A stretch of 64,000 bases of DNA from Blastocatellia bacterium (GCA_046565505.1 JBKHYJ010000042.1:67770-131769); one strand, 5' to 3'. Shown: positions 26,309-59,239, numbered from the stretch's first letter. Numbers and translations are program-made. Notes: generated from the sequence alone by a model not told the origin.

Positions 26309-26558
26309 GCCGGGTCCGGTTTAATATATTGTCTCGGACGAGTCGAGGCGTGCGGAACGAGTTGACGGACTGCGCATTCAGATTGATCGCATGACCGCTG
26401 ACCCTTTCCAGAAGGTGGATGAACTCGATAAAGCCTAACGAGTCGATTACCCTTCCTTCTATGAGGTCAGTGTCGGGGCCGATTTCTTTCAGCTCGCGCT
26501 TTCTAGCCATGAGCCACCGCTTAACCGTCAGGATCGGGGCTGACTTGGTTGCGCTCAT
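26301..26558 (-). CDS. stand-alone peptidyl/acyl carrier protein
   Basis: 85 aa. Phosphopantetheine attachment motif GRVIDSLGFIEFI. AAGGAGG RBS 8 nt upstream of ATG. Confidence 0.75.
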   Translation of the reverse strand: MSATKSAPILTVKRWLMARKRELKEIGPDTDLIEGRVIDSLGFIEFIHLLERVSGHAINLNAQSVNSFRTPRLVRDNILNRTRHE

Positions 26559-26739: not shown

Positions 26740-29700
26740 CTAGTCCGCCCCGAGTTTCTCGCCCGGAGATTCCTCCGCGAACGCCTCCACGTCGTCACCT
26801 GTAAGCTCTTGCATCTCCGACAGCACCTCTGCCATCAGGTTCATTTCCGCCTCATCCAGGTTTTGCTGGCCTTGTTCGATTGCGGCGGCGAGCCGGGCGA
26901 CGGTGGGCGACTCAAAGATAGTTCGCAAAGGAAGCTCTATGGGCAGGGCCTGTTGAATCTTCGATATGAGCTGAGTCGCCAGTATGGATTGGCCGCCCAT
27001 CTCGAAGAAGTCGTCATGTACACCCACGCGCTCGACGCCGAGCACGTCGGCCCACACGCCCGCCAGAAGCTCCTCAAGCGGGGAGCGCGGCGAGGCGAAA
27101 GGCGTTTGCGACCGCAGTTGCGATTGGTCGGGCGCGGGCAGCGCCTTACGATCAATCTTGCCGTTGGGGGTCAGCGGCATCTGCTCCAGAGCCACGAACG
27201 CCGAAGGGATCATGAAATCCGGCAGCCTCTCTTTCAAGGAGCCGCGTAGCTGGTCTGCCGAAAGAGTCTCCCCGGCCTCCGCGACGACGTATGCCACCAG
27301 ACGCTTGTCGCCCGGCCTATCTTCTCTGTCCACGACCACGGCTTCCCTGACGGAGGCGTTCCGCCTTATCGCCTCCTCGATCTCGCCAAGCTCTATGCGG
27401 AACCCGCGTATCTTGACCTGATGATCTATGCGCCCGAGGAACTCGATATTGCCATCGGGCAGGTAGCGCGCGAGGTCCCCCGTGTCGTAGAGTCGCGCCC
27501 CGGGCTCTTCGGAAAATGGGTTGGGGATGAACTTCTCTGCCGTCAGGTCCGGCCGCTTCAGGTAGCCGCGCGCTAGGCCCTCGCCGCCTATGTGTAACAC
27601 GCCAGGTATCCCGACCGGGGCCGGGCCGAGGTAGCCGTCCAGTATATAAATGTTTGTGTTCGCGACCGGCCGGCCGATAGGCACCAGCCCCGCCTCGCTA
27701 CGCCCGCCGCATTCCCAGTAAGTCACGTCCACGGAGGCTTCAGTCGGGCCATACAGGTTGTGCAATTCCGCGCTCATCAGATCGAAGAATCTCTGCTGTA
27801 GCTCGTAGGGCAACGCCTCCCCGCTGCATACGACTCGCTTCAGCCTGTAGCAAGCTTCCAGCCCATCACCCGCGAGGAAAAGCTGTAGCATCGAGGGCAC
27901 AAAATGAATCGTGGTTATCTTCTGCCTTGCTATCTCCTCGATCAGGTATTGCCTGTCTTGATGCCCCTCGGGCAGGGCCATTACCACGCACGCCCCGGTA
28001 ATCAGCGGCCAGAAGAACTCCCAGACGGACACGTCGAAGCTGAAAGGCGTCTTCTGCAATACCCTGTCGTCGCCCGTCATCTGATACGCCTCCTGCATCC
28101 ACAGCAGCCGATTACAGATTCCTCGATGAGGGATCATCACGCCTTTGGGCTTGCCCGTAGACCCGGAGGTGTAGATCACGTACGCCAGGCTCTCGCCCGA
28201 AGCCTCGTTGACAAGGTTTGCCTCGGACTCCCGCGATATGACATCCCAATCAGAATCAAGGCGGACGGTCTTCCCCATGTGCTCCGGCAACCGTCCCGCC
28301 AATCCGCCCTGAGTGAGCAGCACGGGCGGGCGGGCGTCGTCGAGCATGAACGTTAAGCGTTCTTTCGGGTAGGCCGGGTCTAAAGGCACATAAGCCCCGC
28401 CCGCCTTGAGAATGCCGAGCAGACCTACCACCATTTCCAACGACCGCTCGGCGCATACGCCCACGGGCACGTCCGGGCCGACCCCCCGCCGCCGCAGGAA
28501 ATGGGCCATTTGATTCGCCCGCCGGTTCAGCTCCGCATAACTGAGCCGCCGGTCGTCAAAGATGACCGCGTCGGCGAGCGGCGTGCGCTCGGCCTGCGCC
28601 TCGACCATCTCATGCAGGCACACGCCGCGCGGGTAGTCTCTCTTCGTTTGATTGAATTCGACAAGGACCTGGTGCTGTTCCTCCTCCGACAGCATGCGCA
28701 GGCCGCGCACGGGTCGGCTCCAGTCTTCTGTCGCGGAATCGAGTATCGCCAGAAAATGCCTCGCGGCATCCGCGCTCTGCCCTTCGCCGAACGCGCCGCA
28801 GTTGAAGTCAAAATCTAATACGAAATCTCCGCTCCCCTTGAAGTCGCTGACCTGTAGGGTCAAAGTGTCGTTGGAATGCCCCGAATGGACCAGGTCGAAT
28901 TCTACATGCAGCCCGCACAATTCCGTGAGCGACGCGCTTTGATAATTGAAGTAGACGTTGTAGACCCTGTTGTCGCGGGAGTTGCGGACAGGGTACATCT
29001 GGTTTCTCGACGATTCGAGCATCTCGACCTGCACGCGCCTGGCGAGCGAGTCGAAGTTGTCTCCCCCCGAGACGGAGACTTCGAGCGGGCAAACGTTTAT
29101 GAACAGCCCGGGCGTCTGCCTGAAAGCGTCCGGCCGGTTGGCGAACGGCGAGCCTATCCTCAGCCGCCGCTCCCCGGAGACGCGGTGCTGGTAGGCGAAT
29201 AACGTCGCGGCGAATACGACGGCCGGCGAGAATAACCCTTCGCGGCCCGCGACCTGCTTGACCCTCCGGCTGCGCTCCGCCCCGAGGTTGATTGATACCC
29301 TGCGGGTGCGGGTGGTCTTCGCGGAGGAATCTCTCTTATAAAACTGAAACAGATTGGGCGCCGTGGCGAGCTTCTTCCTCCAATAGAGTTCGGCCTGGCC
29401 GTATTGGGGCGAACGGCGGAATTCCCTCTCGTATTCTATGTAGGCCGCGTATGGGGGGAGCGGACGCGCCTCACCGATTCTGCCTTCGAGCGAGAGATGG
29501 TAATACTCGGACACCGACCGTAAGATCACGGCCACCGACCACAGGTCCGCTATCATGTGACTCAGGCTCAAGAACCACACGAACCGATCTTGCGAGAGCT
29601 TGAAGAGGGCCGAGTCGAACAGCCTCTCCCCCAGATCGAGCGGCTCGGCGCACAGCCGCCTGAGCGCCTCCCCGCATTCGGCGCGCGGGTCTTCGCCCCC

Positions 29701-32700
29701 GGAGAGGTCAACGTAGTCGATCTCGAAGTGGATATTCTGGTGCTCTATCCGCCGCGGCGCGCCGTTCGACTCGACGACGGTGCTGCGCAGCACGTCACTG
29801 TTATCTATGACCTTCTGGAACGCCGCGCGGAAATGCGCAACGTCGATCGCGCCTTCGATGGCGAACGTCCCTAGAACGTTGTCGAAGTACAGCTGTACGT
29901 CAGGCTGTAGCTTTTTGCTGAACCAGAACAACAACTGGTTCTGTGCCATGTTCGATTGTTCGTAGATGGCGTCAGTCGCGTCGGCTATGACGCCCTGGCC
30001 GTCCTTTTCCGCCTGCGGGAGTGCAGGCCCCGTCTGCCCCGGCCGTCGTTCGACCAGCGGCGGCAGCGTGAGGATGCGTCGCTCGGGATGGTGGGCGACA
30101 TCCTCCAACACCGCCTCGAAGAATTCCAGGAACCGCCGGGCCGTCGAAGCCTCAAACAGGTCGGAGTTGTATTCGAGCGCCCCCCTTAGTTTCCCCTGCT
30201 CTTCGCGGACGAAAACGGTCAGGTCGAGCCTGGACGTGTGGTCCTCGAACGGGATGCGGCTGACGGTGACGCCGGGCAGGTCAAGGAGCTGGGGTGAAGA
30301 ATTCTCGAAGGCGAACGCGACCTGGCGCAGAGGCGGGCGGCTAAGGTCTCTCTTCTGCTGGAACGCCTCCACCATCTTCTCGAATGGCATGTCCTGGTGG
30401 TCGAAGGCGTCGAGCGTCGCCTCGCGCACGCGATTTATCAGCTCCTTATAAGTCGGGTCGCCCGACAGGTCTATCGGCGGGACCAGTATGTTAGTGAAGA
30501 AGCCGATCAGCCCCTCCGTCTCCATGTGATTCCGGTTGGCGACGGGCAGCCCGACGATTATCTTCTCCTGGCCGGAACACCTGTGCAGCACGGCGGCGTA
30601 AGCCGCCAGCAGCGTCATGAATAGTGTGCTCCCTTGCTGTAGGCTCAGCTCCCTGACGGCCCTCGACAGCGAATCGGGAAACTCAAATGTCAGGGTCGCG
30701 CCGCGGAATGCCTGGACGGCGGGCCGCGGCCTGTCGGTCGGCAGGTCCAGCGTGGGAATGTCATCGCCCAGGCGGCGCTTCCAATGCTCAAGCTCCGCCC
30801 CTAACACGGGGCCGTCGAGCCACCGGCGCTGCCAGACGGCGAAGTCCGCGTACTGGATGGGCAGCGCGGGCAGGGGCGAGGCCAGCCCCTCCGAGAAAGC
30901 CCTGTAGAGCGCGGAAATCTCCCCGTTGAAAATCCCGACCGACCAGTCGTCAGACACTATGTGGTGAATGGCGAGAATCAGCACGTGTTCGTGTTCGCCG
31001 AGCCGGGCAAGGGCGGTCCTCAGCAAAGGCCCTCGGGTCAGGTCGAACGGACGGCGCGCCTCTTCGGCGGCCATTCGCAGGACGGCTTCTTCCCGCGCAG
31101 GCTCATCCAGGTGCGACAGATCGACGACCGGAAAATCCACTTCAAGGCTCGGCGCGACGACCTGCACGGGCTGGCCCTTGTCAGCGCTGAAAGTCGTGCG
31201 CAGTATGTCGTGGCGGCGCACGACTTCGTTGATGCTGCGCCCGAAGGCCCTCACGTCCAGCGGTCCGCTCAGGCGCAAGGCGACGGAGACGTTATAAACC
31301 GGGTTGTTCGGCACGAGCCGGTCGAGGAACCACAGCCGCCACTGCGAGTAAGATAAAGGGATCGCCGCGCGACTCCGCGATTTTTCAATGGGCGGGGCCT
31401 GAAGTCCCGTCCCATTCGCCCGCTCGCTCTTGATGAACTCGGCCAGGGCCGACACGGTCGGCGACTCGAACAGCTTGCGCAAAGGCAACTCCATTTGAAA
31501 GGCGGCGCGGAGGCGCGAGACGGCCTGTGTCGCGAGCAGCGAGTTGCCCCCTGCCTCGAAGAAATTCTCATGCACGCCTACCCGCTCAAGGCCCAGCACC
31601 TTCGCCCACACGTTAGCCACGATCTCTTCCACGGGGTTCGTGATGCCGGGACTCACGGCCTCGGATGCGGCTTCGTGTTGATCGGGCGCGGGAAGCGAGC
31701 GGCGGTCCACCTTGCCGTTCGGCGTCAGCGGGATGGCGTCCAAAAACAGGAACCGCGACGGAACCATGTACTCAGGGAGCCGCGCTTTCAGGAAAGCGCG
31801 CAGGTCGTCCGCACTGACATCTCTGCCCTGCTCCGCTACGACATAAGCCACCAGCCGCCTGTCGCTCGCCTCATCTTGCGCGGCCAATACCACGGCGTTG
31901 CGCAAGGCGTCGTGGCCTCGCAACACCGATTCGATTTCGCTCGGCTCTATCCGAAAACCCCTGACCTTCACTTGATCGTCTACACGGCCGAGGAACTCGA
32001 TGGCCCCATCGGGCAAGTGACGAGCCAGGTCGCCCGTTTTGTAAAGGCGCTCGCCCGGCGGGCCGCCGAACGGGTTCGGTATGAACTTTTCGGCGGTCAA
32101 GTTCGGGCGTTTGAAGTAACCGCGTGCCAGCCCCGCCCCTCCGATATGGATTTCGGCCGGGACTCCCGCGGGTACGGGCTGGGCGTCGCCGTCGAGCAAA
32201 TAGACCTGCGCGTTCGGGAGCGGATAGCCTAATGGGACGGTCGCGAGGTGATCGGCCATGCGCCGCGGGTCAGCATGATAGGTCAGCACGCCCACGGTGG
32301 TCTCCGTCGGGCCGTAGTGATTGATAACCGTCAGGCCGGGGTTGAGGCCCCGGAGCTGCTCGACCCAATTCCTCTGCGACGCCTCGCCGCCCAGCACGAG
32401 CATCTTGCGCGGTAAGACCTGCTCGCCATTAGAGAACGACCGCAAGCTCGCGAGGTGGCTCGGCACTACCTTGAGGCAGTCGATTGAGTTCTCGCGGAAG
32501 TAGCTGCTCATCGCGTCGGCGTCGGAGGCACGGTCCTCTGATATTACATGGAGGCAGCCGCCATTGCAGAGCGAAGGAAAGATGACCGTGTTTCCGAGGT
32601 CGGCCGCCGGCGTGGATACCAGCGCGAAGCTGCTCATGGCGGCCAGTCCTAACCTTTCGGCCGCGCCAATCATGTAATTGACCAGTTGCCTGTGCTCGAT

Positions 32701-35700
32701 GGCGACGCCCTTTGGCCGCCCGGTCGAACCTGATGTATAGAGCACGTAAGCGAGATTGTCGCCTGCTACATTAGAGGCCGGGTTCCCGTCGCTTTCCCGA
32801 CTTATCAGGTCCCAGTCCGAATCCACGCACACCGCCGCGTCCCCGTGTTCGGGCAAGGCATGAATCAACCGCTCCTGAGTCAACAGCGTCGCGGCCCCAA
32901 CGTCTTCGAGCATGAAAGCCACACGGTCCTTCGGGTATGACGGATCGATGGGCACGTAGGCCCCGCCGGACTTTAGTATTCCGAGCAGCCCGACGAACAT
33001 CTCCGGCGACCGCTCCATACACATGCCTACGGGCGTCTCGGGGCCGACGCCCAGCTTGCGCAGGTAATGCGCCAGCCGGTTCGCCCTCGCGTTCAAGTCC
33101 CGGAAGGTGAGCCGTTGCCCCTCGAACATTATCGCGATGTTGTCGGGCGTTCGCTCGACCTGCTCTTCAAAGAATTGATGCACGCACAGGTCTTCGCGGA
33201 AATCCCTCCGGGTGTCGTTGTACGCCACGAGCAAATGATGCAGCTCGGCCTCGGAGAGCATGGGCAGCGCCGAAATGGGCGTTGCGGGGGCCGACGCGGC
33301 TGCCTCCAGCAGCCGCTGGAAGTGGCCGGCCATCCTCCCTATCGTGGGCGCGTCGAATAGCTCTGTCTTGTACTCTATCCAGCCGCTTATCACGTCGGGC
33401 TGCTCTTCCGACAGCGCCATCGTCAGGTCAAATTTCGTCGCCTTTCTTTCGACTTCCACGAAGCTCGTTTTCAGTCCCGCCAAACTCGGCTCGGGCGTCG
33501 GCTCCATTTGCATCTCGAACATGGCTTGAAAGATCGGGTTACGGCTCAACTGCCTTTCGGGTTGTAGCTCATCGACCAACATTTCAAAAGGCAGGTCCTG
33601 GTGGGCGTAAGCGTCAAGACACACGCCTCGCTCGCGGGCTAACGTCTGCGTAAAGCTCGGCCTCCCGGAGAGGTCCGTGCGCAGGACCAGTGTATTTACG
33701 AAGAAACCGATCAACCCTTCCAACTCCGCGCGGTTGCGGCCCGCTATGGGCGTGCCGACGATTATGTCTTCCTGGCGGGTATACCTGTGGAGCAATACCT
33801 TGAATGCGCACAGCAGGGTCATGAACATGGTGACGCCCTCCTGCCTGCTGAGCGCCTTGAGCGACCGCGTCAAATCCTCCGACAGAGCGAACGACTGCCT
33901 GGAGCCTTGGAAGTCCGAGGCCTGCGCGTGCGGCCGGTCCGTCGGCAGCTCCAGCACCGGGAGGTCGCCCGAGAGCTTCTGTCTCCAGTACGACAACTGC
34001 GATTCCAACAACTCACCTTGTAACCACCCCCGCTGCCATACGGCGAAATCAGCGTACTGGATCGGCAACCCGGGAAGCGGCGAAGGTCTGCCGGCGGAAA
34101 AGGCGTCATAGAGTACGCCCATCTCGCGCGCGAACACGCCCAGAGACCACCCATCCGAAACAATGTGGTGCAAGCACAGAATCAGCAGGTGGTCATCTTC
34201 GCCCACGCGCAGGAGCTTCGCACGAAGCAACGGCCCCGCGGCGAGGTCAAAAACATGCGCGGCCTCTTCTTCGGCTAACTTTAGCGCGCCGGCCTCGCGT
34301 GAGCCGGCCGGCAGGTCAGTAAGGCTTATCACGGGGAGAGGCAGCTTAAGCTCCGGCGAGATGACTTGCCGGGGCCGCCCCTCCGCGGAGATGAATGTGG
34401 TTCTGAGGGATTCGTGACGCCACACTAGCTCATTCAAGCTCTGCTCTAAGGCCGAAATGTCGAGCCGGCCCTTGATGCGTATGGCCCCCGGCATGTTGTC
34501 TGCGCGGCGGCCGGGCTCTAACTGGCTGAGGAACCACAGGCGCTGTTGGGCGAAGGAAAGCGGCAGTTGCCCGTCGCGGGAGGCGGGCGATAGCTGCGGC
34601 GCCGCAGGCGCGGCCGCCGACCGGAGCGCCCTCTCTACGACCTGCGCCAGCCCGGCCACTGTCGGCGATTCAAACAGCGCGCGGACAGACAACTCTACGC
34701 CGAACGCATTATGCACGCGAGACAAAAGCTGCATGGCTAGCAGCGAGTGTCCGCCCATCTCGGAAAAGTCGTCATAAATACTTACGCGGTCGAGCCCGAG
34801 CACCTCCATCCAGATTTCCGCAAGGGCCTCCTCGACCGGCGTGCGCGGGGCGGCAAAGATACCCGCCGAGGCGGGCTTAGTCCAGTCTGGCGCGTGAAGC
34901 GCGCGGCGGTCCACCTTGCCATTCGGCGAGAGCGGCAGCGCGTCGAGAAGCACGAGCGAGGAAGGCACCATGTATTCGGGAAGCTTCTCCTCCAAGTAGC
35001 TGCGCAGAATCGGGACCAGTTTTTCGATGTGGACCCCCTGAAGCGGCGCGGTCGCGTACTTGCCCCACGGCCTGGGGCTTATAGTCTCTTTGACGAGAGG
35101 GGCGGCCGCCCTGATCGCGGCTTCTCCCTGCCCGGCGGCGCGGCGCTGGAAGACGATCTCGTATCGGCCATCCGCCCTCGATTCCGACCAGCCTATGCTG
35201 ACGGAGTACGGCTCTTCGTCGCCTATCGCCCAGATGTCCTCGGGGTCTATTCCCTCTTCGCCCGCCCCGGCGTATTCTGCCATCAACTCCGCCGCGGTCG
35301 CCGGGCCGTTGGCCTGTTTCAGCATTTGCACCAGTTTCACATCCGCCATGACCCTGGCGTTGGGCACTCCCTTTATGGCTAGCAGGTCAGGCCGGCTCTC
35401 TCGCAGCAGTCGCCGCACGCCGGCCGCCGTCAGGCCTTCAGTTTCCCAGTCGAGCCAATCGACATGCCGGGCGGCGCGCCTCTCGCCCCCGACATGCAGA
35501 ATCACGTCGTAGCGGAATTTGCTTAGCTCGTTCCGATTGCGCCCCCGCATCAGCAGTATTTCCACATGGCTTATCTGCGGCAGGTGGCGCTTCAGCGCGA
35601 TAAAGAACTCGGGGTCGATCACCAGTTGTTTTTCTTTTAGCAACTGTGTTTGTACCTGCTGCAATAACTCCGCCTTAGACAGCCCGGGCGGCGACTTGTG

Positions 35701-38700
35701 CAGTTGGACGGAGGTGTGGAAGGCTTCGAGCAGCGACAAGTTCCTAACGTCGCCCAGGAAAATATGCCCGCCTTTCGCGACCGCCCTCACGGCCTGTTCG
35801 AGTACGCGCATGAGGTAATCGACGCTCGGGAAGTACTGCGCAACCGAAACGATCAGCACCGCGTCGAACTCGCCCTCCTCCACGCCCTGGAAATTATCCC
35901 CGCCCCTGAGCTTGAAGCTCACCTGCGGCAGGTCGACGCCCATGATCTTTAACTGCTCCTGAATCAGTTCGAGCGAGCGCACCGCCTGATCCGTCGCGTA
36001 ATACTTCTCGCAAGAGGGCGCGACGCGCAGCAGCATAAGCCCGCTGCCCCCCGAGCCGATCTCATACACGCGCGAAGGGCGCAGCGACAGGATTCGCTCG
36101 ACCGTCTGGTCCATCCACTCGCGCACCTCTTCGCCGGGGATGGGCGCATCGGAGTAGCTGCTGGTCCAGCCCTTGATGTAGAACCCGAGTTCTTCGCCCG
36201 GGTCCATGTCCCTGTAGAGGTCGTTGAAAATCTCGCGCCAGTCGGCGGCCTGCCTGCTTTGCAGGTCATCGCCCGCCGCGCGCTCGTCGAATTCCACGTG
36301 CTCCCTGTCCGGGACCACGAACCCGACGAGCCGCTTATTGCCCGCGCCATATTCCTGCGCGAGGATCACGGCGTCCCGCACGGCGCGGTGCTGCCTCAGC
36401 ACAGTTTCGATCTCCTCAAGCTCGACGCGGAACCCGCGTATTTTCACCTGCTGATCGACCCGGCCGAGGAATTCAAGGTTGGCGTCCGGGAGGTAGCGGG
36501 CGAGGTCGCCGGTTCGGTACATCCTTTCGCCGGGCTTGAGCGCGAAGGGGTTAGGTAAGAACCTGTCGGCGGTCGTGTCGGGCCGCCCGTGATAGCCTCG
36601 GGCCAGGAGGGCGCCGCCCAGGTAGACCTCGCCCTGCACGCCGACCGGGGCGGGCTGTAGGTTCGTATCCAGTATATAAATCTTGGCGTCGGGTATGGCG
36701 GACCCTATCGGTAGCTCGCGCGTCACGCCCTCCCTCACGGGGAACTCCGATATGTCGCACATAGAGACGGAGATCGTCGCTTCGGTCGGGCCATAAGTGT
36801 GCATGAGCCGGGTCCGGCCTGCCGCATGCTTCTGCCAGGCGGCGAGCCTCTCCGGGAACGCCCTTTCCCCCGCTATGACGACCATCCTCAGCGAGGGCGG
36901 CAGCGACAGATTCTCTTCTTCCAGCGTGGCCGTGATTTGATGCCAGTATGCGGTCGGCAGGCTCATCACGGATATCCCCCACTCCCTGCACCTCTCCAGG
37001 AAGACGGTTACGGAGTCGAGCATAGAATCGGTCCGCAGCACGAGCGCCGCCCCGCGGGTGAGACACGGGTATATCTCTTCCCCGCTTATGTCGAAACTGA
37101 TCGAGCAGAATTGAAGCGCGCGGTCACCGGGCTTCACCCCGTAGTTGACCGCGCAAGTTTCCGCGTAGCTCACAAGCGAGCGGTGCTGGACCATCACGCC
37201 TTTCGGGGACCCCGTGGAGCCCGACGTGTAAATGACGTAGACGAGATTTTCTCCCGCGACGGTGTTGACAGGGTTCTCTTCGCTCTCGCCCGCGACCGCT
37301 TCCCATCCGGAATCCAAACAGATCACGCGCACGTCCCCGGCCGGAATGGTCTTGAGCAATCGCCGTTGCGTCAGCAGCACGGGCACGCGGGCGTCGTCCA
37401 ACATCAGTGCGAGGCGCTCCGGCGGGTAGTCTTTGTCTAACGGCACGTAGGCGCCCCCGGCTTTGATGATCCCGAGCATACCCACCATCATTTCCAGAGA
37501 GCGTTCCATGCACAGGCCGACAAGAACGTCTGGCCCCACCCCCATAGACCGTAAGCGATGAGCCACCTGATTGGCGCGGCTGTTCAACTGACGGTAAGTG
37601 AGTTCTTCTTTCTCGAAGGCCAGGGCGATGGCTTCGGGCGACCGCTCGACCTGCCGCTCGAATAGCAGGTGTATGCAAGGAGATTGAATATACTGCCGGT
37701 CGGTATCGTTCCAGGCGAAGAGGATCTGTTGGCGTTCAGACCTCGACAGGAGGTCTAAATCCGAGATGCGCGCGGCGGGGTCGGCCACTATACTCTCCAG
37801 GAGTCTTTGGAAATGGCCCACCATCCTGCCGACCGTGCCGGATTCAAACAGGTCCGTGTTGTACTCGAAGGAGGCGGCCAGCCCCTCGTCCACCTCGGCT
37901 ATGCTCAGGGACAAATCGAACTGAGCTATCTGCTGGTGCAGGCCCGTAGATTCCAGTAGCAAATCTCCCAGCCGCATCTGCACCCCGGCCTCCCCCAGCG
38001 CGAACGTAGCCAGCCTTTGCACGTCCGGCAGGGGCGACTTTTGCCATACGAACATCACCTGAAAAATAGGCGAGCGGCTGAGGTCGCGCACGGGTTGCAG
38101 TCGCTCGACAAGTAGCTGGAACTGGAAATCCTGGTGCTCGAAGGCTTCCAGTGCGGTCCGGCGCACCTGGTCCAGAAACTCGTCGAATCTAACGGAGGCC
38201 GACGCCTGCGCCCGCATCACGACGGGGTTGACGAAATAGCCTACGACCCCGCGCAAGTCGGCCCTGCCGCGGCCGGCCGTCGGCGAGCCCACGAGGATGT
38301 CCTCCTGAGCGGTGTAGCGGTAAAGCAGCGCCTGGAACGTCGCCAGCAACGTCATGTAGGGCGTCGCTGAGCGCGCGGCGGCGAGGGACTTCAGGCCCCG
38401 GGTGAGGTCGCGTTCCAGCTTGAAGAATATCGACGCACCGTTGTAAGTCTGGACGGGCGGCCTGACTTTATCCGTGGGGAGATTCATCACGGGGAGGTCG
38501 CCGGCAAGCTTTTCCTGCCAGTACTGCCACAGCCGGTCGCCGGCGGGACCGGACAGCATCTCTATTTGCTGCCTGACGTACTCCACATACTCTAATTCGA
38601 TGGGCGGGAGCGCCGCCTCCTCGCCGGCCGTCTTAGCCTGGTACAGTATCCCTAGCTCACGCATCATCACGGCCAGGGACCAGAGGTCGGCTATGATGTG

Positions 38701-41181
38701 GTGCATGGTCATTAGCAGAACGTGATCCTGCGCCGACCGCGTGAAAAGGGTGACGCGCAGCAGCGCGCCCCGTTCGAGGTTGAACGGGCGCTGAGCGTCC
38801 TCGATCACCCGCCTGTTCAGAAATTCGTCGTCCCACCGCGAAGCGTCCTCTAACTGGAAACACACCTCTGCGCGATCATGAATCAATTGTATGGGACTAC
38901 CCCCGGGGGCGGTGAAATTCGTGCGCAAGGAGGGGTGACGGTCGATGAGCGATTGAAATGCCCGGCGCAACGCGTCCGAATCTACGCGCGACCTGATGCG
39001 GACGGCGCCCATAATATTGTAGGCCGCGCTGTGCGGGGCCAGTTTATGCAGGAACCAGAGAGCGCGCTGTCCGTGGGAGAGAGGGTGTTCAGATTCGGCG
39101 TCACGTTCGGGGGCGGCGAGAGCCGGCGAGGGTCCGGGCGCGGCCGCCAAGCGGGAAAAAACCTGCGCGGCGATTTGAGCGACGGACAAGTTTTCGAGGA
39201 AATTCGCCATCGGGAGGTTCACGCCCAGACTGGTCTCTATGCCGTACGCTAGCTCGACTGCCACGAGGGAATCTAAACAGAATTGGGCTATGGGCCGGCT
39301 CGGGTCTATGCCGGAGGGCTCTACTCCCAGCATCATCGCCAGTCGCGATATAAGACCGGATTCGATCTCTTCGGTAGTTTGCGGAGGTGAGGCGAGCGCC
39401 TGCGGCTCGCTTCGAGGTATCAGGTTTAAATTGGACTGCGCGACCGCTTCGAGGCTCCCGGCCATATACCTTGCGCGGCAGGCTTGGCGTTGAATCTTGC
39501 CGCTGGAAGTCTTCGGTATGCTTCCCGGCTCAAGCAGGACGACCGCGTACGTTTGGATTTCATGTTCTTCCGCCACGGCCCTGCGGACGGCCTCTATAAC
39601 CGCGTCTGCGTCGAGGGGCGGCCGATTACTTACTTCCTGAGCCAGCACGAGGCGCTCTTCGCCGCCCACTTCGACTGAGAACGCGGCGCCGCAGCCGGGC
39701 CTCAGGGCCGGGTGACTCCTCTCGGCCGTCAACTCGATGTCCTGTGGGTAATGGTTACGCCCCCTTATGATAATCAGGTCTTTGAGTCTGCCGGTGACGA
39801 ACAACTCTCCGCCCTGTAGGAAGCCGAGGTCGCCTGTACGCATGTAAGGGCCATCGCCCGTGTCGGAGACGTACGCTTCAAACGTGTCCCGCGTCTCATC
39901 CGGGCGGCCCCAGTAGCCGCGGGCCATACTCGGCCCCCTCAGCCATATCTCCCCTATCTGATCTGTCGCACACTGAGTCAGAGATTCAGTGTTTACGATC
40001 ACCGCGTCGAGACCAATCGCGAGCCTGCCGCAGCCGGTCAGACTGCGCGAATCCAGCCCGCGCGCGGTGGCTTCGACCAGCCGGTTTTCTTTAAGGGCGG
40101 ATTCGTCAAAGGCGCTGATGACTGGGGGCGATTGTTTCGGCCCGCCCGCCACGAATAAAGTGGCCTCGGCCAAGCCGTAGCAGGGGCAGAAAGCCTCTCT
40201 GCGAAAGCCGCATGGCTCGAATGCGGCCGAGAACCGCTCTATCGTTTCAGGGCGGACTGGCTCCGAGCCATTGAAAGCCACCGTCCAACTGGAGAGGTCA
40301 AGGTCGGCTCGCTGTTCGTCACTGATCTTGCGAACACAGAGGTCGTAGGCGAAGTTCGGCCCCCCGCTCGTCGCGGCTTTATAACGCGACACGGCCTGTA
40401 GCCAGCGCAGGGGCTTTTGTAAGAACGCTTCCGGCGATAAGAGGATCGACCTTGAGCCTATGTACAATGGCTGGAGCACGTTGCCTATCAGCCCCATGTC
40501 GTGGAAGAGCGGCAGCCACCCGACGAAGGTCGATTCTTCGGTGTGGTCGAACGAGGCCCGGATCATACGTTCGTTATGTAACACGTTGCCATGAGTGACC
40601 ATCACGCCCTTCGGGGCGGCTGTCGAGCCGGACGTATACTGAAGGAAGGCTAACGTTTCAGAATCAACTTCAGGCTCGTGCCATTCGTCAGCAAGGCCGC
40701 GGGCCATTGCGTCCGTGGCAACCCTTCGCACGGACCGGATGTCCTGATCCAGGCCCGGCAGGCTCTCGATCATAGAAAGGATGGGAGATACGGTCAGGAC
40801 GACGAAAGGTCCCGCGTCATTTACGATGGCTCTGAATCTGGGCAGGCTCCGGCTCAGGCGGGCGGGGTCGGGTGAGTATGTAGGCACGGCAGTAACACCC
40901 GCGTACAGGCAGCCGAAAAAGGCGGCTATGAAATCTAACCCCGAGGGGTAAAGTAGCAGGGCGCGTTCCCCAGTCGCGTTCAAGGACTGGAGGTATGCGC
41001 CTATGGCTCGCGCCCGCCGGTCTAATTCTTCGTAGGTGAGGCTGGCCTCCTTGGTTTCCCCATCCGAAAGGAAGCTGTAGGCTAGTCGATCAGGCTGGTT
41101 CAGTGCCCTCCATCTCAGAAGCTCGATCAGGGAGGAGAATCCCGCATGGCTGCTAGAACCAGCTACTCTCTTGCTTTTCAT
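26740..41181 (-). CDS. non-ribosomal peptide synthetase, 4813 aa: FAAL-ACP-C-A(N-MT)-T-C-A-T-C-C*-A-T plus C-terminal docking region
   Basis: All core motifs read from the translation. FAAL (YTSGSTAAPKGVMVTHGN, extended insertion) with fused ACP (FCLDSLV). C1 MHHIIADLWS. A1 (SGSTGSPKG ... GRVDQQVKIRGFRVE) carrying an inserted SAM-MT domain (VYEIGSGGSG) before NGKVDRRAL. T1 GGHSL. C2 LHHIVSDGWS. A2. T2 GGNSL. C3 IHHIVSDDWS. C* with SHMIADLWS. A3. T3 GGQSIL. ATG with GGGGGA RBS. Confidence 0.97.
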   Translation of the reverse strand: MKSKRVAGSSSHAGFSSLIELLRWRALNQPDRLAYSFLSDGETKEASLTYEELDRRARAIGAYLQSLNATGERALLLYPSGLDFIAAFFGCLYAGVTAVPTYSPDPARLSRSLPRFRAIVNDAGPFVVLTVSPILSMIESLPGLDQDIRSVRRVATDAMARGLADEWHEPEVDSETLAFLQYTSGSTAAPKGVMVTHGNVLHNERMIRASFDHTEESTFVGWLPLFHDMGLIGNVLQPLYIGSRSILLSPEAFLQKPLRWLQAVSRYKAATSGGPNFAYDLCVRKISDEQRADLDLSSWTVAFNGSEPVRPETIERFSAAFEPCGFRREAFCPCYGLAEATLFVAGGPKQSPPVISAFDESALKENRLVEATARGLDSRSLTGCGRLAIGLDAVIVNTESLTQCATDQIGEIWLRGPSMARGYWGRPDETRDTFEAYVSDTGDGPYMRTGDLGFLQGGELFVTGRLKDLIIIRGRNHYPQDIELTAERSHPALRPGCGAAFSVEVGGEERLVLAQEVSNRPPLDADAVIEAVRRAVAEEHEIQTYAVVLLEPGSIPKTSSGKIQRQACRARYMAGSLEAVAQSNLNLIPRSEPQALASPPQTTEEIESGLISRLAMMLGVEPSGIDPSRPIAQFCLDSLVAVELAYGIETSLGVNLPMANFLENLSVAQIAAQVFSRLAAAPGPSPALAAPERDAESEHPLSHGQRALWFLHKLAPHSAAYNIMGAVRIRSRVDSDALRRAFQSLIDRHPSLRTNFTAPGGSPIQLIHDRAEVCFQLEDASRWDDEFLNRRVIEDAQRPFNLERGALLRVTLFTRSAQDHVLLMTMHHIIADLWSLAVMMRELGILYQAKTAGEEAALPPIELEYVEYVRQQIEMLSGPAGDRLWQYWQEKLAGDLPVMNLPTDKVRPPVQTYNGASIFFKLERDLTRGLKSLAAARSATPYMTLLATFQALLYRYTAQEDILVGSPTAGRGRADLRGVVGYFVNPVVMRAQASASVRFDEFLDQVRRTALEAFEHQDFQFQLLVERLQPVRDLSRSPIFQVMFVWQKSPLPDVQRLATFALGEAGVQMRLGDLLLESTGLHQQIAQFDLSLSIAEVDEGLAASFEYNTDLFESGTVGRMVGHFQRLLESIVADPAARISDLDLLSRSERQQILFAWNDTDRQYIQSPCIHLLFERQVERSPEAIALAFEKEELTYRQLNSRANQVAHRLRSMGVGPDVLVGLCMERSLEMMVGMLGIIKAGGAYVPLDKDYPPERLALMLDDARVPVLLTQRRLLKTIPAGDVRVICLDSGWEAVAGESEENPVNTVAGENLVYVIYTSGSTGSPKGVMVQHRSLVSYAETCAVNYGVKPGDRALQFCSISFDISGEEIYPCLTRGAALVLRTDSMLDSVTVFLERCREWGISVMSLPTAYWHQITATLEEENLSLPPSLRMVVIAGERAFPERLAAWQKHAAGRTRLMHTYGPTEATISVSMCDISEFPVREGVTRELPIGSAIPDAKIYILDTNLQPAPVGVQGEVYLGGALLARGYHGRPDTTADRFLPNPFALKPGERMYRTGDLARYLPDANLEFLGRVDQQVKIRGFRVELEEIETVLRQHRAVRDAVILAQEYGAGNKRLVGFVVPDREHVEFDERAAGDDLQSRQAADWREIFNDLYRDMDPGEELGFYIKGWTSSYSDAPIPGEEVREWMDQTVERILSLRPSRVYEIGSGGSGLMLLRVAPSCEKYYATDQAVRSLELIQEQLKIMGVDLPQVSFKLRGGDNFQGVEEGEFDAVLIVSVAQYFPSVDYLMRVLEQAVRAVAKGGHIFLGDVRNLSLLEAFHTSVQLHKSPPGLSKAELLQQVQTQLLKEKQLVIDPEFFIALKRHLPQISHVEILLMRGRNRNELSKFRYDVILHVGGERRAARHVDWLDWETEGLTAAGVRRLLRESRPDLLAIKGVPNARVMADVKLVQMLKQANGPATAAELMAEYAGAGEEGIDPEDIWAIGDEEPYSVSIGWSESRADGRYEIVFQRRAAGQGEAAIRAAAPLVKETISPRPWGKYATAPLQGVHIEKLVPILRSYLEEKLPEYMVPSSLVLLDALPLSPNGKVDRRALHAPDWTKPASAGIFAAPRTPVEEALAEIWMEVLGLDRVSIYDDFSEMGGHSLLAMQLLSRVHNAFGVELSVRALFESPTVAGLAQVVERALRSAAAPAAPQLSPASRDGQLPLSFAQQRLWFLSQLEPGRRADNMPGAIRIKGRLDISALEQSLNELVWRHESLRTTFISAEGRPRQVISPELKLPLPVISLTDLPAGSREAGALKLAEEEAAHVFDLAAGPLLRAKLLRVGEDDHLLILCLHHIVSDGWSLGVFAREMGVLYDAFSAGRPSPLPGLPIQYADFAVWQRGWLQGELLESQLSYWRQKLSGDLPVLELPTDRPHAQASDFQGSRQSFALSEDLTRSLKALSRQEGVTMFMTLLCAFKVLLHRYTRQEDIIVGTPIAGRNRAELEGLIGFFVNTLVLRTDLSGRPSFTQTLARERGVCLDAYAHQDLPFEMLVDELQPERQLSRNPIFQAMFEMQMEPTPEPSLAGLKTSFVEVERKATKFDLTMALSEEQPDVISGWIEYKTELFDAPTIGRMAGHFQRLLEAAASAPATPISALPMLSEAELHHLLVAYNDTRRDFREDLCVHQFFEEQVERTPDNIAIMFEGQRLTFRDLNARANRLAHYLRKLGVGPETPVGMCMERSPEMFVGLLGILKSGGAYVPIDPSYPKDRVAFMLEDVGAATLLTQERLIHALPEHGDAAVCVDSDWDLISRESDGNPASNVAGDNLAYVLYTSGSTGRPKGVAIEHRQLVNYMIGAAERLGLAAMSSFALVSTPAADLGNTVIFPSLCNGGCLHVISEDRASDADAMSSYFRENSIDCLKVVPSHLASLRSFSNGEQVLPRKMLVLGGEASQRNWVEQLRGLNPGLTVINHYGPTETTVGVLTYHADPRRMADHLATVPLGYPLPNAQVYLLDGDAQPVPAGVPAEIHIGGAGLARGYFKRPNLTAEKFIPNPFGGPPGERLYKTGDLARHLPDGAIEFLGRVDDQVKVRGFRIEPSEIESVLRGHDALRNAVVLAAQDEASDRRLVAYVVAEQGRDVSADDLRAFLKARLPEYMVPSRFLFLDAIPLTPNGKVDRRSLPAPDQHEAASEAVSPGITNPVEEIVANVWAKVLGLERVGVHENFFEAGGNSLLATQAVSRLRAAFQMELPLRKLFESPTVSALAEFIKSERANGTGLQAPPIEKSRSRAAIPLSYSQWRLWFLDRLVPNNPVYNVSVALRLSGPLDVRAFGRSINEVVRRHDILRTTFSADKGQPVQVVAPSLEVDFPVVDLSHLDEPAREEAVLRMAAEEARRPFDLTRGPLLRTALARLGEHEHVLILAIHHIVSDDWSVGIFNGEISALYRAFSEGLASPLPALPIQYADFAVWQRRWLDGPVLGAELEHWKRRLGDDIPTLDLPTDRPRPAVQAFRGATLTFEFPDSLSRAVRELSLQQGSTLFMTLLAAYAAVLHRCSGQEKIIVGLPVANRNHMETEGLIGFFTNILVPPIDLSGDPTYKELINRVREATLDAFDHQDMPFEKMVEAFQQKRDLSRPPLRQVAFAFENSSPQLLDLPGVTVSRIPFEDHTSRLDLTVFVREEQGKLRGALEYNSDLFEASTARRFLEFFEAVLEDVAHHPERRILTLPPLVERRPGQTGPALPQAEKDGQGVIADATDAIYEQSNMAQNQLLFWFSKKLQPDVQLYFDNVLGTFAIEGAIDVAHFRAAFQKVIDNSDVLRSTVVESNGAPRRIEHQNIHFEIDYVDLSGGEDPRAECGEALRRLCAEPLDLGERLFDSALFKLSQDRFVWFLSLSHMIADLWSVAVILRSVSEYYHLSLEGRIGEARPLPPYAAYIEYEREFRRSPQYGQAELYWRKKLATAPNLFQFYKRDSSAKTTRTRRVSINLGAERSRRVKQVAGREGLFSPAVVFAATLFAYQHRVSGERRLRIGSPFANRPDAFRQTPGLFINVCPLEVSVSGGDNFDSLARRVQVEMLESSRNQMYPVRNSRDNRVYNVYFNYQSASLTELCGLHVEFDLVHSGHSNDTLTLQVSDFKGSGDFVLDFDFNCGAFGEGQSADAARHFLAILDSATEDWSRPVRGLRMLSEEEQHQVLVEFNQTKRDYPRGVCLHEMVEAQAERTPLADAVIFDDRRLSYAELNRRANQMAHFLRRRGVGPDVPVGVCAERSLEMVVGLLGILKAGGAYVPLDPAYPKERLTFMLDDARPPVLLTQGGLAGRLPEHMGKTVRLDSDWDVISRESEANLVNEASGESLAYVIYTSGSTGKPKGVMIPHRGICNRLLWMQEAYQMTGDDRVLQKTPFSFDVSVWEFFWPLITGACVVMALPEGHQDRQYLIEEIARQKITTIHFVPSMLQLFLAGDGLEACYRLKRVVCSGEALPYELQQRFFDLMSAELHNLYGPTEASVDVTYWECGGRSEAGLVPIGRPVANTNIYILDGYLGPAPVGIPGVLHIGGEGLARGYLKRPDLTAEKFIPNPFSEEPGARLYDTGDLARYLPDGNIEFLGRIDHQVKIRGFRIELGEIEEAIRRNASVREAVVVDREDRPGDKRLVAYVVAEAGETLSADQLRGSLKERLPDFMIPSAFVALEQMPLTPNGKIDRKALPAPDQSQLRSQTPFASPRSPLEELLAGVWADVLGVERVGVHDDFFEMGGQSILATQLISKIQQALPIELPLRTIFESPTVARLAAAIEQGQQNLDEAEMNLMAEVLSEMQELTGDDVEAFAEESPGEKLGAD
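27112..28659 (-). other. A domain 3, hand-derived code D-V-W-H-V-S-L-V-D-K (close to Ser code DVWHLSLIDK)
   Basis: FDVSVW...TTIHFVPS...VVCSGE...NLYGPTEASVD. Manual derivation. Confidence 0.5.
28702..31368 (-). other. tandem condensation-family domains (canonical C3 followed directly by divergent C* with SHxxxD) preceding A3
   Basis: C3 has C1/C3/C5/C6/C7 motifs (LSYSQWRLWFL, HHIVSDDWS, IGFFTNILV, HQDMPFE, RDLSRPPL). The next ~425 aa form a second C-like domain (LLFWFSKKLQP, LSLSHMIADLWS) that lacks the HQD and RDxSRNPL motifs. No A or T domain lies between them. Confidence 0.75.
31687..33204 (-). other. A domain 2, hand-derived specificity code D-L-T-K-V-G-H-V-G-K (near-identical to Asp code DLTKVGHIGK)
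   Basis: Positions 235/236/239/278 from AADLGNT...CLK, 299/301 from VLGGE, 322 from NHYGPTE, 330/331 from TTVG. Manual alignment to GrsA numbering, so tentative. Confidence 0.5.
35182..36264 (-). other. N-methyltransferase domain inserted between A8 and A10 motifs of A domain 1
   Basis: VYEIGSGGSG (checked at nt 36040-36069) resembles the NRPS N-MT motif VLEIGTGSG. Flanked by GRVDQQVKIRGFRVE (A8) and NGKVDRRAL (A10). Confidence 0.8.
39142..41181 (-). other. FAAL (fatty acyl-AMP ligase) starter domain with fused ACP
   Basis: N-terminal FAAL-type adenylation region (aa 1-~585) followed by a DSL carrier motif at aa ~637. Implies N-acylation, i.e. a lipopeptide. Confidence 0.85.
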
Positions 41182-42484
41182 TTATTCCCCCAAGATTACC
41201 GACATAAAGACCGCGCGTTGCCCGCCGCGTCGCGCACGGGCTTAACCGGCCTGGCCGCCGCCGGGGCTTCGCGCGTGCGGCGCGGCGTCTGATGATTGCG
41301 CCGGGGCCGAACTCTAGAGCATTGTTGATGTCGGGTAAAATACTCCGGCAGGTCGGCGGAAGGTGCCCTGCTTCAGGAATTGGTTCTGGCCGCGCCCGGG
41401 GCGAACTAATCCGCATGAAGTGTTAGCCCTTTAAGGGAAGCTGCTTCGCAGCGTAAGAATTGCCAGGGCTGGTAGGGAACGAGAGGCTAAGGCGATAAGC
41501 GTACAGATCACTTACGACGGTTAGGGACTGTCACCCTCTGTGTCGGGACCTGATAATGGTATTGCCAGATGAGGAGCGTTCTCTCGGAATCGAATGAGCC
41601 AGCAATTTAATGTCTCTGTTCGTCACTAGCACTTCTGCCCCCGTGCCCTACTCGCAAAGAGGTCCAGACCGGGCACTATGACCCAAGCCCACATTCATCA
41701 TGTAATCTTTGTAAACCTGAAGCCGGGGAGCCCGCTTCGCGGGAAGGATGGGCGAGCAAGCTCCATAGCGTTGAAGATTCGACATCTTACATATGCTCCT
41801 TAGTCGTGGGTTGTGTTGGAGGACAATTCGGACTACAGCCCCGGGCTTGCATCAGTTTTGTCCTAATTCTTAAACCTGAAAGAGGTATGTAAATTCCCAC
41901 GGCTTGCTGCGGTTCCTCTTCGTACAGTGAGATTCAATATAAGAGCGTGTTCCGCAAGCCTGCGCCGCACCGATTGGCGCGGAGAGCTTTATCCCGCGAT
42001 ACACTGGTGACAGAGCGTATCTCTTAATAATGACTATGCTTGCCGTTGGGGCGTATTAAATTTCTAAACTGTTCGTATTTTTCAAAGAGGCCATTCAGAC
42101 CTACCGCTCAAAAAGAAATAATGCGCAGGCCAGCCTGCGATCTTCGAGAGAGCACGGACATGAGCGGCCAAATTTAAACTCGGCGTTTTGAGATAAGAAT
42201 CACATCTTGCTAAAGCCTCACCCATTTTAGCGATGGATATTACTTTGTCAAGAAAAATCGTACCCGCGCGCCGCCACGCGCCGGGCCATTAACTCATGGC
42301 CCGACGCGTAGTCCTGAGGTCGCTTCTTATGTTTGCCTTAAGATATGGGCGAAAGGTGGGCGTAAGTAGTGGGAATTACCTGGCACTCGCTTGCTGCCTT
42401 ACGGTCCTGCATGGTGGCGCGCGGTGCATTCACGCGCCTCTCCCTTCCGCCTTGCTCTCCCGCTCACAGTTATCTCTTGCCTTA

Positions 42485-42919
42485 TCAATCTACCACCACC
42501 GCTATTTCCCGCTGCTCGTAATACACGCGCGCGGGCAGCCTTACCTTCCCATTCAGTGCGTAGTATTCCCTCGTGCGCGCGCCCGGGGCCACGTCCCTGC
42601 CGGCGGCGGGCCAGTAATGGTCGCCCGACTGTATCGCCAGTATGTCCACCTGGCGGTCGTCGCTGCCCACGAATGATAAGCTCTGGGGATTGAACCGTGC
42701 GAAGTCCTTTGATGTGTTCTCCACCTCTATCTCTACGGACCCATTTCCGATCTTGAGCAAACTCCCCCTGAATTTAGTCATCCTGATCTTTATCGGGCCG
42801 ACGTTGATCGGGCTGGTATCCAGATCAGAGTTTCTGATGCGCGGCGTCTGATCCGCGGCCATAACAGATGGCAGGCACGACAAGATTAACAGCACCAGAG
42901 TAGATATCACTCTTCTCAT
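42485..42919 (-). CDS. secreted/lipoprotein-like hypothetical protein
   Basis: Start chosen at MRRVISTLVLLILSCLPSVMA (signal peptide) with AGGAGG 9 nt upstream. The track start at 43015 is an upstream alternative. Confidence 0.55.
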   Translation of the reverse strand: MRRVISTLVLLILSCLPSVMAADQTPRIRNSDLDTSPINVGPIKIRMTKFRGSLLKIGNGSVEIEVENTSKDFARFNPQSLSFVGSDDRQVDILAIQSGDHYWPAAGRDVAPGARTREYYALNGKVRLPARVYYEQREIAVVVD

Positions 42920-43167
42920 AGGTTTGACCTCCTGGTGAAGAATGATAATCGTACTCCCGCGGCGGTGACAATGAGGCCGCACGGGTGACCGCCTTGACCG
43001 CGGCCAGCTCGGCATTAAGACGCGGCGGTTTCAGTAGTAAGGAATGCGGCTTCCACATTCTACAAATCAGAACCTCCGCAGTCGGCGCCCCGGCGCAAAG
43101 CGTCCTTTCATTTCTCGGGCCGAGCGCCGGGAGTCGGATTATTAATCCGCGGCATGAAATCCAAAAT

Positions 43168-49242: not shown

Positions 49243-49588
49243 TTTCCAACCCTGTTATGCGATTGATAGCCTCGACGAAAGCCCGCCAGTTGCTCCGCTG
49301 CGCGGCCAGCACCTTCCTGCCTTCGGGAGTCAGCCGGTAAAAGCGCCGCCGCCGCTGGCCCGCCTTCTCCACCCAGCGGCCCTGAATCCAGCCGCGCTTC
49401 TCCAGCCTGTACAGCAGCGGGTAAAGCGAGGCGACGTTGAACTGCAACGCCCCGCCCGAGCGCGCCTCAATCAACTTGCTGATCTCGTAGCCGTGCCGGG
49501 GCCGGCCTTCGACCAGCGACAGTATCAACAACTCCGCGCTCCCTTTCTTCAGCTCGCGGTCAAGCATTCGAGAGTCTATATGTGGCAT
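49235..49588 (-). CDS. PadR-family transcriptional regulator
   Basis: 117 aa winged-HTH PadR signature (ELLILSLVEGRPRHGYEISKLIE...LYPLLYRLEKRGWI). Confidence 0.9.
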   Translation of the reverse strand: MPHIDSRMLDRELKKGSAELLILSLVEGRPRHGYEISKLIEARSGGALQFNVASLYPLLYRLEKRGWIQGRWVEKAGQRRRRFYRLTPEGRKVLAAQRSNWRAFVEAINRITGLENA

Positions 49589-58732: not shown

Positions 58733-59112
58733 ACGCCCTCCCCTGCCCGGATTCCTGGCCCGGCTTGCGCGCGAATCCTCTGGAGCGCGCTCTGCTCGGT
58801 CTGTTCAATGCGGACGTGCGACAGGAGGCCGAGCATCTCGAACAGCTCCCGGTTAGACGCGCTGAGGTTGGAGAGCATCAACGTCCCGCGCGCGTCGTTG
58901 ACGGCCTCGATCACGCCGAGCAGGATCGAGATGCCTATGCTGTTGATCAGCTCTGTCTCTTCAAAATTGATGACGATGTGGCGCACGCCCCCCCGAAGCA
59001 ACTCTTGACAGTGCGCCTCTATGTCCTCGCCCCTGAGTTGATTGAGGTAAGGGCCGGGGGAAATTACGGCCGCGCCCTGGACTATCTTTGCTCTGATTTC
59101 GGTAGCATTCAT
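58729..59112 (-). CDS. STAS-domain anti-sigma-factor antagonist
   Basis: 127 aa SpoIIAA-like protein (INFEETELINSIGISILLG, conserved phospho-Ser region). 4-nt ATGA overlap with downstream HD-GYP. Confidence 0.8.
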   Translation of the reverse strand: MNATEIRAKIVQGAAVISPGPYLNQLRGEDIEAHCQELLRGGVRHIVINFEETELINSIGISILLGVIEAVNDARGTLMLSNLSASNRELFEMLGLLSHVRIEQTEQSALQRIRAQAGPGIRAGEGV

Positions 59113-59239
59113 CTAGGCCTCCAGACGAAGACTTCAAGGATTAATCGGTTATGCCTGCGTGGATGAGAAGCCGAACGATAATGGTGCCGGGTGCCCGGCG
59201 CGGCGCGAGCGCCGCGTCAAGAGACGAGCGACTCGGCGC

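Follow-up and report, generated by a model that had tools for sequence, protein, structure and literature searches.

A conserved non-coding spacer upstream of a lipopeptide synthetase gene in Blastocatellia: a candidate promoter and long regulatory leader

What occupies 1.3 kb of gene-free DNA directly upstream of a giant synthetase gene in a GC-rich bacterium? The question arises from a 64,000-nt stretch of DNA (the window) in a metagenome-assembled genome from Blastocatellia (Acidobacteriota). A spacer of 1,303 nt (positions 41182-42484) sits here between two minus-strand genes, one encoding a secreted protein of 144 aa and the other a non-ribosomal peptide synthetase (NRPS) of 4,813 aa that begins with a fatty-acyl-AMP ligase (FAAL). 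The NRPS open reading frame (ORF) begins at 41181, and the ORF upstream, in the same direction, has its end at 42485, exactly the flanks that a preliminary description of the locus had given to a gap directly 5' of the synthetase gene. The spacer is non-coding and under purifying selection, and it carries a conserved promoter sequence and conserved hairpins. We propose that it is a composite, lineage-specific promoter and long regulatory leader that would control a ~30-kb lipopeptide operon by attenuation or antitermination, a reading that we regard as evenly poised between right and wrong.

The long ORF-free gap is real and, in a genome so rich in GC, unusual. No gene-free stretch of the window is longer; the other gaps between long ORFs measure ~430 nt or less. 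Among 115 related FAAL loci, the median ORF-free distance upstream is 168 nt; it reaches at least 1 kb in five, all of them from low-GC cyanobacteria and none GC-rich. The GC content of the spacer is 0.539 versus 0.614 for the window, which confirms the lower GC noted previously and corrects the figure of ~65% then given for the genome. In the spacer core (41421-42260) it falls to 0.493. The 15 lowest-GC 300-nt segments of the 64 kb (0.457-0.473) all lie within 41771-42300, and the AT-rich run singled out earlier is located at 42056-42087. At the 1.3-kb scale, another part of the window is about as low in GC (0.535). The statement that the stretch has no ORF of at least 60 aa holds for ORFs wholly inside it, but not for three longer ones that overlap its edges: an 87-aa ORF (41153..41416, minus strand) mostly within the spacer, and plus-strand ORFs of 126 aa and 100 aa that extend into it from the upstream gene. 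None of these three is intact in relatives.

Relatives with the same gene order (144-aa gene, spacer, NRPS) were found on two JGI contigs, L081 and L082, and two Logan contigs, L166 and L167. L081 and L082 share 99.5% identity and L167 does not differ from the window, so that the comparison effectively comprises three independent lineages. Identity to the window at four-fold degenerate sites is ~0.85 for L081 and 0.63 for L166. No gene is called within the spacer in any of the four contigs.

The spacer is not drifting. Between the window and L081 there are 87 substitutions in 1,298 aligned nt versus 260 expected from base-specific four-fold-site rates, a ratio of 0.33 (p ~2e-41); for three other nearby spacers the same ratio is 0.46-0.82. 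A compositional cause of the low divergence was rejected because A/T four-fold sites diverge faster than G/C ones. The whole leader is 81% identical to L166, with a ratio to neutral of 0.43, and single blocks come down to 0.04-0.26. Along this alignment, the upstream part (42484-42262) is 50% identical, at neutral level (ratio 1.2), the promoter region is 91% identical (ratio 0.19) and the best leader blocks reach 84-98% (ratio 0.04-0.37), while two linkers, 42034-41935 and 41284-41235, stay near neutral at 60-67% (ratio 0.7-1.0). The leader is thus conserved across the orthologous loci, and no intact gene occupies this position in any of them.

Nor is the spacer a gene or a pseudogene. Pfam searches of its six-frame translations with stops masked gave no match, and when the genes lying after the 144-aa homologues of remoter Blastocatellia were compared with it by tblastn, no remnant emerged. 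No similarity of the spacer to plasmids or phages was detected, and the window holds no internal repeats, terminal inverted repeats or copies resembling miniature inverted-repeat transposable elements beyond chance (19 repeated motifs observed, ~15.5 expected). No tRNA or tmRNA was found. Its substitutions lack codon (3-nt) periodicity, 1-nt indels occur within conserved blocks of the leader, and no homologous frame, third-position bias or ratio of non-synonymous to synonymous rates (dN/dS) well below 1 was found. One of 22 small ORFs, of 45 aa, is intact in every lineage; one survivor is expected by chance. The coding tests and the conservation together bear out the earlier placement of a non-coding stretch in the leader or promoter position of the NRPS. 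Its features are listed here in the direction of the presumed transcription.

42250..42484, minus strand: 3' untranslated region (3'UTR) of the 144-aa gene with a predicted intrinsic terminator, recognized by fold z-score, a compensatory pair and a U-tract
42224..42251, minus strand: predicted promoter P1, TTGACA-16-TAAAAT, an 11/12 sigma-70 match, conserved and facing the NRPS
~42217-41182, minus strand: apparently untranslated leader of ~1,035 nt, from the P1 start to the NRPS AUG
42173..42212, minus strand: invariant 40-nt 5' element, UAGCAAGAUGUGAUUCUUAUCUCAAAACGCCGAGUUUAAA, with 0 substitutions in any lineage
42108..42141, minus strand: terminator-like hairpin T1, with a GC-rich stem (~42140-42123), a CUGG loop and a U-rich tract, AUUAUUUCUUUUU
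42081..42110, minus strand: conserved sequence block after T1, UGAGCGGUAGGUYUGAAUGGCCUCUUUGAA
41935..42034, minus strand: variable linker, 62-67% identical to L166, at 0.7-0.9 of neutral expectation
41800..41921, minus strand: most conserved leader block, of which 41884-41835 is 98% identical to L166
41893-41866, minus strand: promoter-like site P2, TTTACA-16-AAGAAT, a 9/12 match; its hexamers match 5/6 and 4/6 in L166
41648..41802, minus strand: region of the 45-aa ORF (41785-41648), with a Shine-Dalgarno-like UAAGGAG at 41802-41796
41435..41640, minus strand: sequence-conserved blocks, 84-94% identical to L166, with no ORF and no stable or conserved structure
41232..41278, minus strand: GC-rich hairpin H3, ~50 nt upstream of the start codon in otherwise variable sequence
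41182..41214, minus strand: NRPS ribosome-binding region, UUGGGGGAAUAA followed by the AUG at 41181, 97% identical to L166 and at 0.07 of neutral

The argument for a control region starts with P1, the sole 11/12 match to the sigma-70 consensus on either strand of the window. Six matches of at least 10/12 occur in the window, and they lie mostly in intergenic DNA, which suggests that the sigma-70 consensus is meaningful in this organism. The P1 hexamers are kept in L081, L082 and L166 (as TAGAAT in the last), and one base of the spacing between them varies, in L081 and L082. Hexamers, spacing, conservation and placement are those of a sigma-70-type promoter, and we therefore predict one here, with transcription starting at ~42217 and pointing toward the NRPS.

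Immediately downstream of P1, the invariant 40-nt element includes an inverted repeat, TGTGA-N6-TCTCA (42204-42189). Nowhere else in the window does a sequence come within one mismatch (9/10) of the CRP-type palindrome TGTGA-N6-TCACA, with 0.71 such matches expected by chance. The repeat provides a lead, for which its position alone is suggestive. No cognate CRP/FNR-type regulator was identified among the partly annotated proteins of the window.

T1 with its U-tract lies ~80 nt into the leader, whose first 110 nt comprise the invariant element and this hairpin. A consensus terminator scan flagged it. Folded alone in each of the three lineages, the stem forms with 6, 7 and 8 bp, the 8-bp version having a shifted bulge, and the U-tract is kept, although the U-run is interrupted. 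By column-wise counting, the 3' arm of L166 is out of register. The stem and U-rich tract are those of an intrinsic terminator, as which T1 is predicted to act. The first bases of the block that follows T1, with GAGCGG, can pair with CGCUCA at 42166-42161 and thereby enclose the hairpin. This helix around T1 (55-60 with 111-116) forms in 100% of the cells counted, with one G-C to G-U change.

Upstream of P1, the transcript of the 144-aa gene appears to end at a terminator with a long stem. Its 16-bp core stem (42311-42296 with 42289-42274) is lengthened by a lower stem as far as 42322/42259, and a U-tract, AUUUUUCUU, follows directly at 42258-42250. Fold z-scores of -3.9 (window) and -6.9 (L081) were obtained, and a 150-nt scan gave -5.6 on the minus strand. 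Window and L081 differ here by one compensatory C-G to U-A pair and one G-U to A-U change. L166 cannot be aligned here upstream of GGGUACGAUUUU (50% identity); its 5' arm is a different one, which likewise pairs with the conserved GGGUA just before the U-tract. Stem and U-tract at 42322-42250 have the form of an intrinsic terminator and are predicted to be one.

Downstream of the T1 region, the evidence is mainly sequence conservation. In the blocks at 41435-41640 the consensus fold z-score lies between -0.3 and +1.9, and a 1-nt indel of L166 argues against coding. A sigma-54 promoter at TGGCAATTCTTACGC (~41465) was considered and dropped by eye, as it departs from TGGCAY-N5-TTGCW at three positions, among them both T's of the -12 element. 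Closer to the NRPS, three pairs of H3 are altered on both sides in L166 (GC to AU, CG to UA and GC to AU). This compensatory level was reached by 8 of 500 shuffles, slid controls giving 0-1, and the G-U pairs of the hairpin favour an RNA made from the minus strand. The window and L167 share a 29-nt deletion at 41921/41922 relative to L081, L082 and L166, in which the 29 nt are present; this lineage-specific deletion falls within one of the leader's variable linkers. A 17-nt exact GC-rich match, GGCCGCGCCCGGGGCGA, links the leader (41388-41404) to another intergenic region (8386-8402; E 0.004 within the window) and is probably due to chance in GC-rich DNA.

A riboswitch, as suggested previously, or any other known RNA family found no support. 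The whole window has no Rfam match at gathering thresholds, the families covered including riboswitches, T-box, large non-coding RNAs (OLE, GOLLD, ROOL, HEARO) and known small RNAs. Relaxing the search to E of at most 10 over 40900-42800 gave nothing credible, namely three matches of 15-20 bits where the thresholds demand 49-78. Single-sequence and consensus folds alike mostly have z-scores near 0, and sliding consensus z-scores mostly range from -1.5 to +1.9. The consensus fold of the whole leader has six pairs with double changes versus ~60 with broken cells, and its covariation term is a penalty (+2.88). A large structured RNA is unsupported, at the low power that three lineages afford; the signal consists of a few local hairpins and of constraint at the sequence level. 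Of the earlier suggestions of a long 5' untranslated region (5'UTR) or a small RNA, the conserved promoter and terminator-like hairpin fit a 5'UTR with an attenuator or, alternatively, a small-RNA gene.

The element is lineage-specific. Searching 165 fetched loci with the spacer by blastn and nhmmer returned only L081 and L082 (L166 and L167 were fetched afterwards), and no spacer homologue was found upstream of ~160 other FAAL genes. Scans of genome and metagenome contigs with the NRPS N-terminus found only FAAL genes of at most 61% identity with unrelated upstream DNA, and a protein search with the same query gave no orthologue above 67% identity. The genes that come after remoter homologues of the 144-aa gene (54-72% identity) are unrelated, and none is an NRPS. 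The unrelated DNA upstream of other FAAL genes, together with the lack of an NRPS beside these homologues, marks the element as specific to this lineage.

From this arrangement, we infer that P1 fires, that the leader is made as one transcript and that T1 is a regulated terminator. The transcript of the 144-aa gene would end at the long-stem terminator (42322-42250), and P1 would follow at once. Transcription from ~42217 would then produce the untranslated leader. T1 would act as a checkpoint at which most transcripts stop, unless a factor that acts on the invariant element or on the elongating polymerase permits read-through. Polymerase that reads through would enter the remaining leader and then the ~30-kb lipopeptide operon. 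In the remaining 900 nt, the conserved blocks between variable linkers would most simply be protein-binding or operator sequences and elements of the 5'UTR, including the covarying H3 and the ribosome-binding site.

Several observations weigh against this proposal. Where transcripts start and end, and whether polymerase reads through, is deduced from sequence. Covariation in T1 has no statistical support in the three lineages, a number so small that covariation tests have low power, and in fold energy the hairpin does not stand out (z -1.0 to +0.3). Inspection found no alternative antiterminator pairing, and no NusG paralogue or other candidate factor was identified among the partly annotated proteins of the window. 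Most of the leader lacks a structure signal, so the conservation may act at the level of DNA rather than of RNA. P2 lies in the best-conserved block, and transcription of the NRPS could therefore start nearer to the gene.

The last two points lead to the main rival explanation, in which P1 and T1 delimit a separate small-RNA gene of ~105-110 nt (42217 to ~42108) and the NRPS is transcribed from a nearer promoter such as P2. The other conserved blocks would then be operator or activator DNA and a 5'UTR of at most 680 nt. A strong promoter, an invariant 5' half and a conserved hairpin with U-tract are the classic anatomy of a trans-acting small RNA, P2 falls within a 98%-conserved block, and the scarcity of RNA structure in most of the leader fits DNA-level constraint. 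However, P2 is only a 9/12 match, and its -10 hexamer (AAGAAT) is poor. Neither the window nor 1.5 Mb of related loci yielded another instance when searched with a covariance model of the P1-T1 segment, and no target is known. The blocks on either side of T1 are moreover equally conserved, as would rather be expected of a continuous leader. We therefore consider a separate small-RNA gene possible but doubtful.

A second alternative is that the 45-aa ORF is translated, either as a micropeptide or as an upstream ORF that controls Rho-dependent termination or mRNA stability before the NRPS. No other ORF stays intact in all lineages with length, start and stop unchanged, its UAAGGAG is conserved 9-10 nt upstream, and its first seven residues are conserved, both changes there being synonymous. 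Yet its dN/dS is 0.86 versus L081 and 0.55 versus L166, as compared with ~0.1 for the flanking genes, and its excess of synonymous changes lacks significance. Conservation is just as high in the sequence around the ORF, chance alone would leave about one of the 22 ORFs intact, the ORF is uncalled in L081, L082, L166 and L167, and it has no Pfam match. A functional peptide is thus improbable.

Thirdly, the AT-richer core could be a silencing or architectural region of the DNA itself, where nucleoid-associated proteins, such as silencers like H-NS, Lsr2 or MvaT, or several transcription factors would keep the cluster off, much as the preliminary description had considered. The lowest-GC DNA of the window is located here, the conservation of sequence comes without structure signal or coding, and invariant stretches contain imperfect palindromes, for example TGTGA-N6-TCTCA and AGTTTAAATT. 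On the other hand, repeated motifs are not above chance, and the DNA is only mildly AT-rich, its GC content (0.49-0.54) being 7-12 points lower than in the window as a whole. Silencers usually still bind when the sequence drifts, but the blocks here are 84-98% conserved, and H3 shows RNA-type covariation with G-U pairs. We judge such a region to be quite improbable as the explanation of the spacer. Silencing and a translated 45-aa ORF are not exclusive of each other or of a promoter with a regulatory leader.

A decayed regulator gene or mobile element, also proposed earlier, is scarcely credible and essentially excluded: the spacer has the length of a typical gene, and remoter homologues of the 144-aa gene precede other genes, so that the cluster was inserted here at some point, but neither Pfam domains nor neighbour-gene remnants, plasmid or phage matches, repeats or terminal inverted repeats were found, and evolution at 0.33-0.43 of the neutral rate is unlike that of a dead gene.

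Long operons with a long regulatory leader in front are familiar, and a promoter with a long leader at this locus overturns nothing. In Bacillus velezensis, the LoaP-dependent dfn and mln leaders contain terminators with factor-dependent read-through in long antibiotic operons, and a small hairpin together with a NusA-dependent terminator carries all determinants (PMC12691694). As in the spacer described here, a long untranslated leader precedes a very long co-directional secondary-metabolite operon, a terminator-like hairpin with U-tract comes soon after the promoter, and a short, highly conserved element stands before the hairpin. The LoaP leaders differ in belonging to another phylum and in their UNCG-tetraloop hairpin: the loops between P1 and T1 are UCUU, UAAA and CUCU, and that of T1 is CUGG or CCGG, as judged by inspection of the folds with no dedicated search. 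The leader here is also ~1 kb long, and most of it follows the terminator. No NusG-like protein was found among the 29 window proteins scanned against Pfam, which are part of the ORFs of the window. Membership of the LoaP system is not supported.

The RfaH/ops (JUMPstart) leaders of Proteobacteria likewise combine a long leader with a long operon, and a GCGGTAG block (42105-42093) follows the pause- or terminator-like site here. The 12-nt ops sequence, GGCGGTAGnnTG, is however unmatched within two mismatches, and the C of GCGGTAG is a T in L081. The window has 61 matches to the ops 12-mer with at most two mismatches, versus 77 expected, and the GCGGTAG block of the leader is not among them. 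The ops element was therefore rejected, membership of the RfaH/ops system is not supported, and the block can instead be explained by its pairing with the upstream CGCUCA.

With riboswitch and attenuator leaders, the spacer shares the order of promoter, ~80-nt conserved segment, terminator hairpin and U-tract; unlike them, it has no credible Rfam match at E of at most 10, no antiterminator pairing that we could find, and no covariation for an aptamer fold. In Salmonella, the mgtA and mgtCBR leaders are 250-300 nt long and contain upstream ORFs with diagnostic codon content, which control Rho-dependent termination. The leader here resembles them in being long and untranslated with a short ORF that has its own Shine-Dalgarno sequence, but it is ~1 kb rather than 250-300 nt long, and the coding status of the 45-aa ORF is unsupported.

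The ~1-kb leader might represent an undescribed cis-regulatory system of Acidobacteria, in which a promoter-proximal terminator checkpoint, made of the invariant element and T1, is followed by a long, sequence-constrained leader, and a factor that recognizes this leader licenses the 30-kb lipopeptide operon. A metabolite-sensing protein could play this part, as could a factor specialised in elongation or antitermination. We hold this broader idea to be rather unlikely.

The presumed target of control and its surroundings are as follows.

26740..41181, minus strand: NRPS gene of 4,813 aa, with the domain order FAAL-ACP-C from its start and the AUG at 41181
10500-41181, minus strand: biosynthetic cluster, apparently one long co-directional unit
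14828-18991, minus strand: second NRPS, C-A-T-TE, ending in a thioesterase
42485-42919, minus strand: upstream gene, a secreted hypothetical protein of 144 aa (NCBI MFP5261894; called at 144 aa by both JGI and NCBI)

The 4,813-aa NRPS, in which the N-terminal ligase is followed by a carrier domain and then by a condensation domain, opens a minus-strand cluster that extends to ~10.5 kb. The cluster contains this FAAL-NRPS, a putative carrier protein, an MFS transporter, two methyltransferases, an ADOP permease, a fatty-acid desaturase, a B3_4-domain protein and the second NRPS; a TauD-type dioxygenase lies on the strand opposite to the other genes. This content suggests a modified lipopeptide as the product. 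An 85-aa ORF (26301-26558, minus strand), located where 431 nt separate the NRPS stop from the MFS gene, has a weak PP-binding match (E 0.0028, below the Pfam cut-off) and is probably a free-standing carrier protein. The numbering of NCBI protein accessions implies one coding sequence beyond those counted between the MFS gene and the 144-aa gene; this is most likely the 85-aa ORF and does not lie within the spacer.

On the other side of the spacer, the 144-aa protein has an N-terminal hydrophobic, signal-peptide-like stretch and no Pfam domain, and its named homologues are all from Blastocatellia or other Acidobacteriota. A mechanically called ORF of 176 aa (42485-43015, minus strand) is probably this same gene with its start at 42919. 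A 10/12 promoter-like site at 42971-42942 falls within the extension of the longer call, and with its own promoter and terminator the gene looks like a self-contained unit. Two ADOP-type permeases, duplicated MacB/FtsX proteins, are encoded at 46558-49570 and 21269-23722 (both minus strand). A gene for a PadR-family regulator (49235-49570) precedes and overlaps the former, and it is the sole transcription-factor gene seen adjoining the cluster. Downstream of the region under study, a signalling cluster (57485-63320, minus strand) encodes an HD-GYP phosphodiesterase, an 837-aa histidine-kinase-like ATPase protein and a PocR-GAF-GGDEF diguanylate cyclase.

Acidobacteria are abundant in soil and rich in biosynthetic gene clusters but rarely cultured, and a brief literature search found no description of how their clusters are switched on. 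The spacer also illustrates that current RNA-family libraries capture little of the non-coding regulatory repertoire of this phylum. The leader gives a specific sequence to seek in metatranscriptomes. A defined promoter and a conserved leader checkpoint would in addition offer handles for heterologous expression of the cluster, in which T1 may be kept or deleted and P1 replaced.

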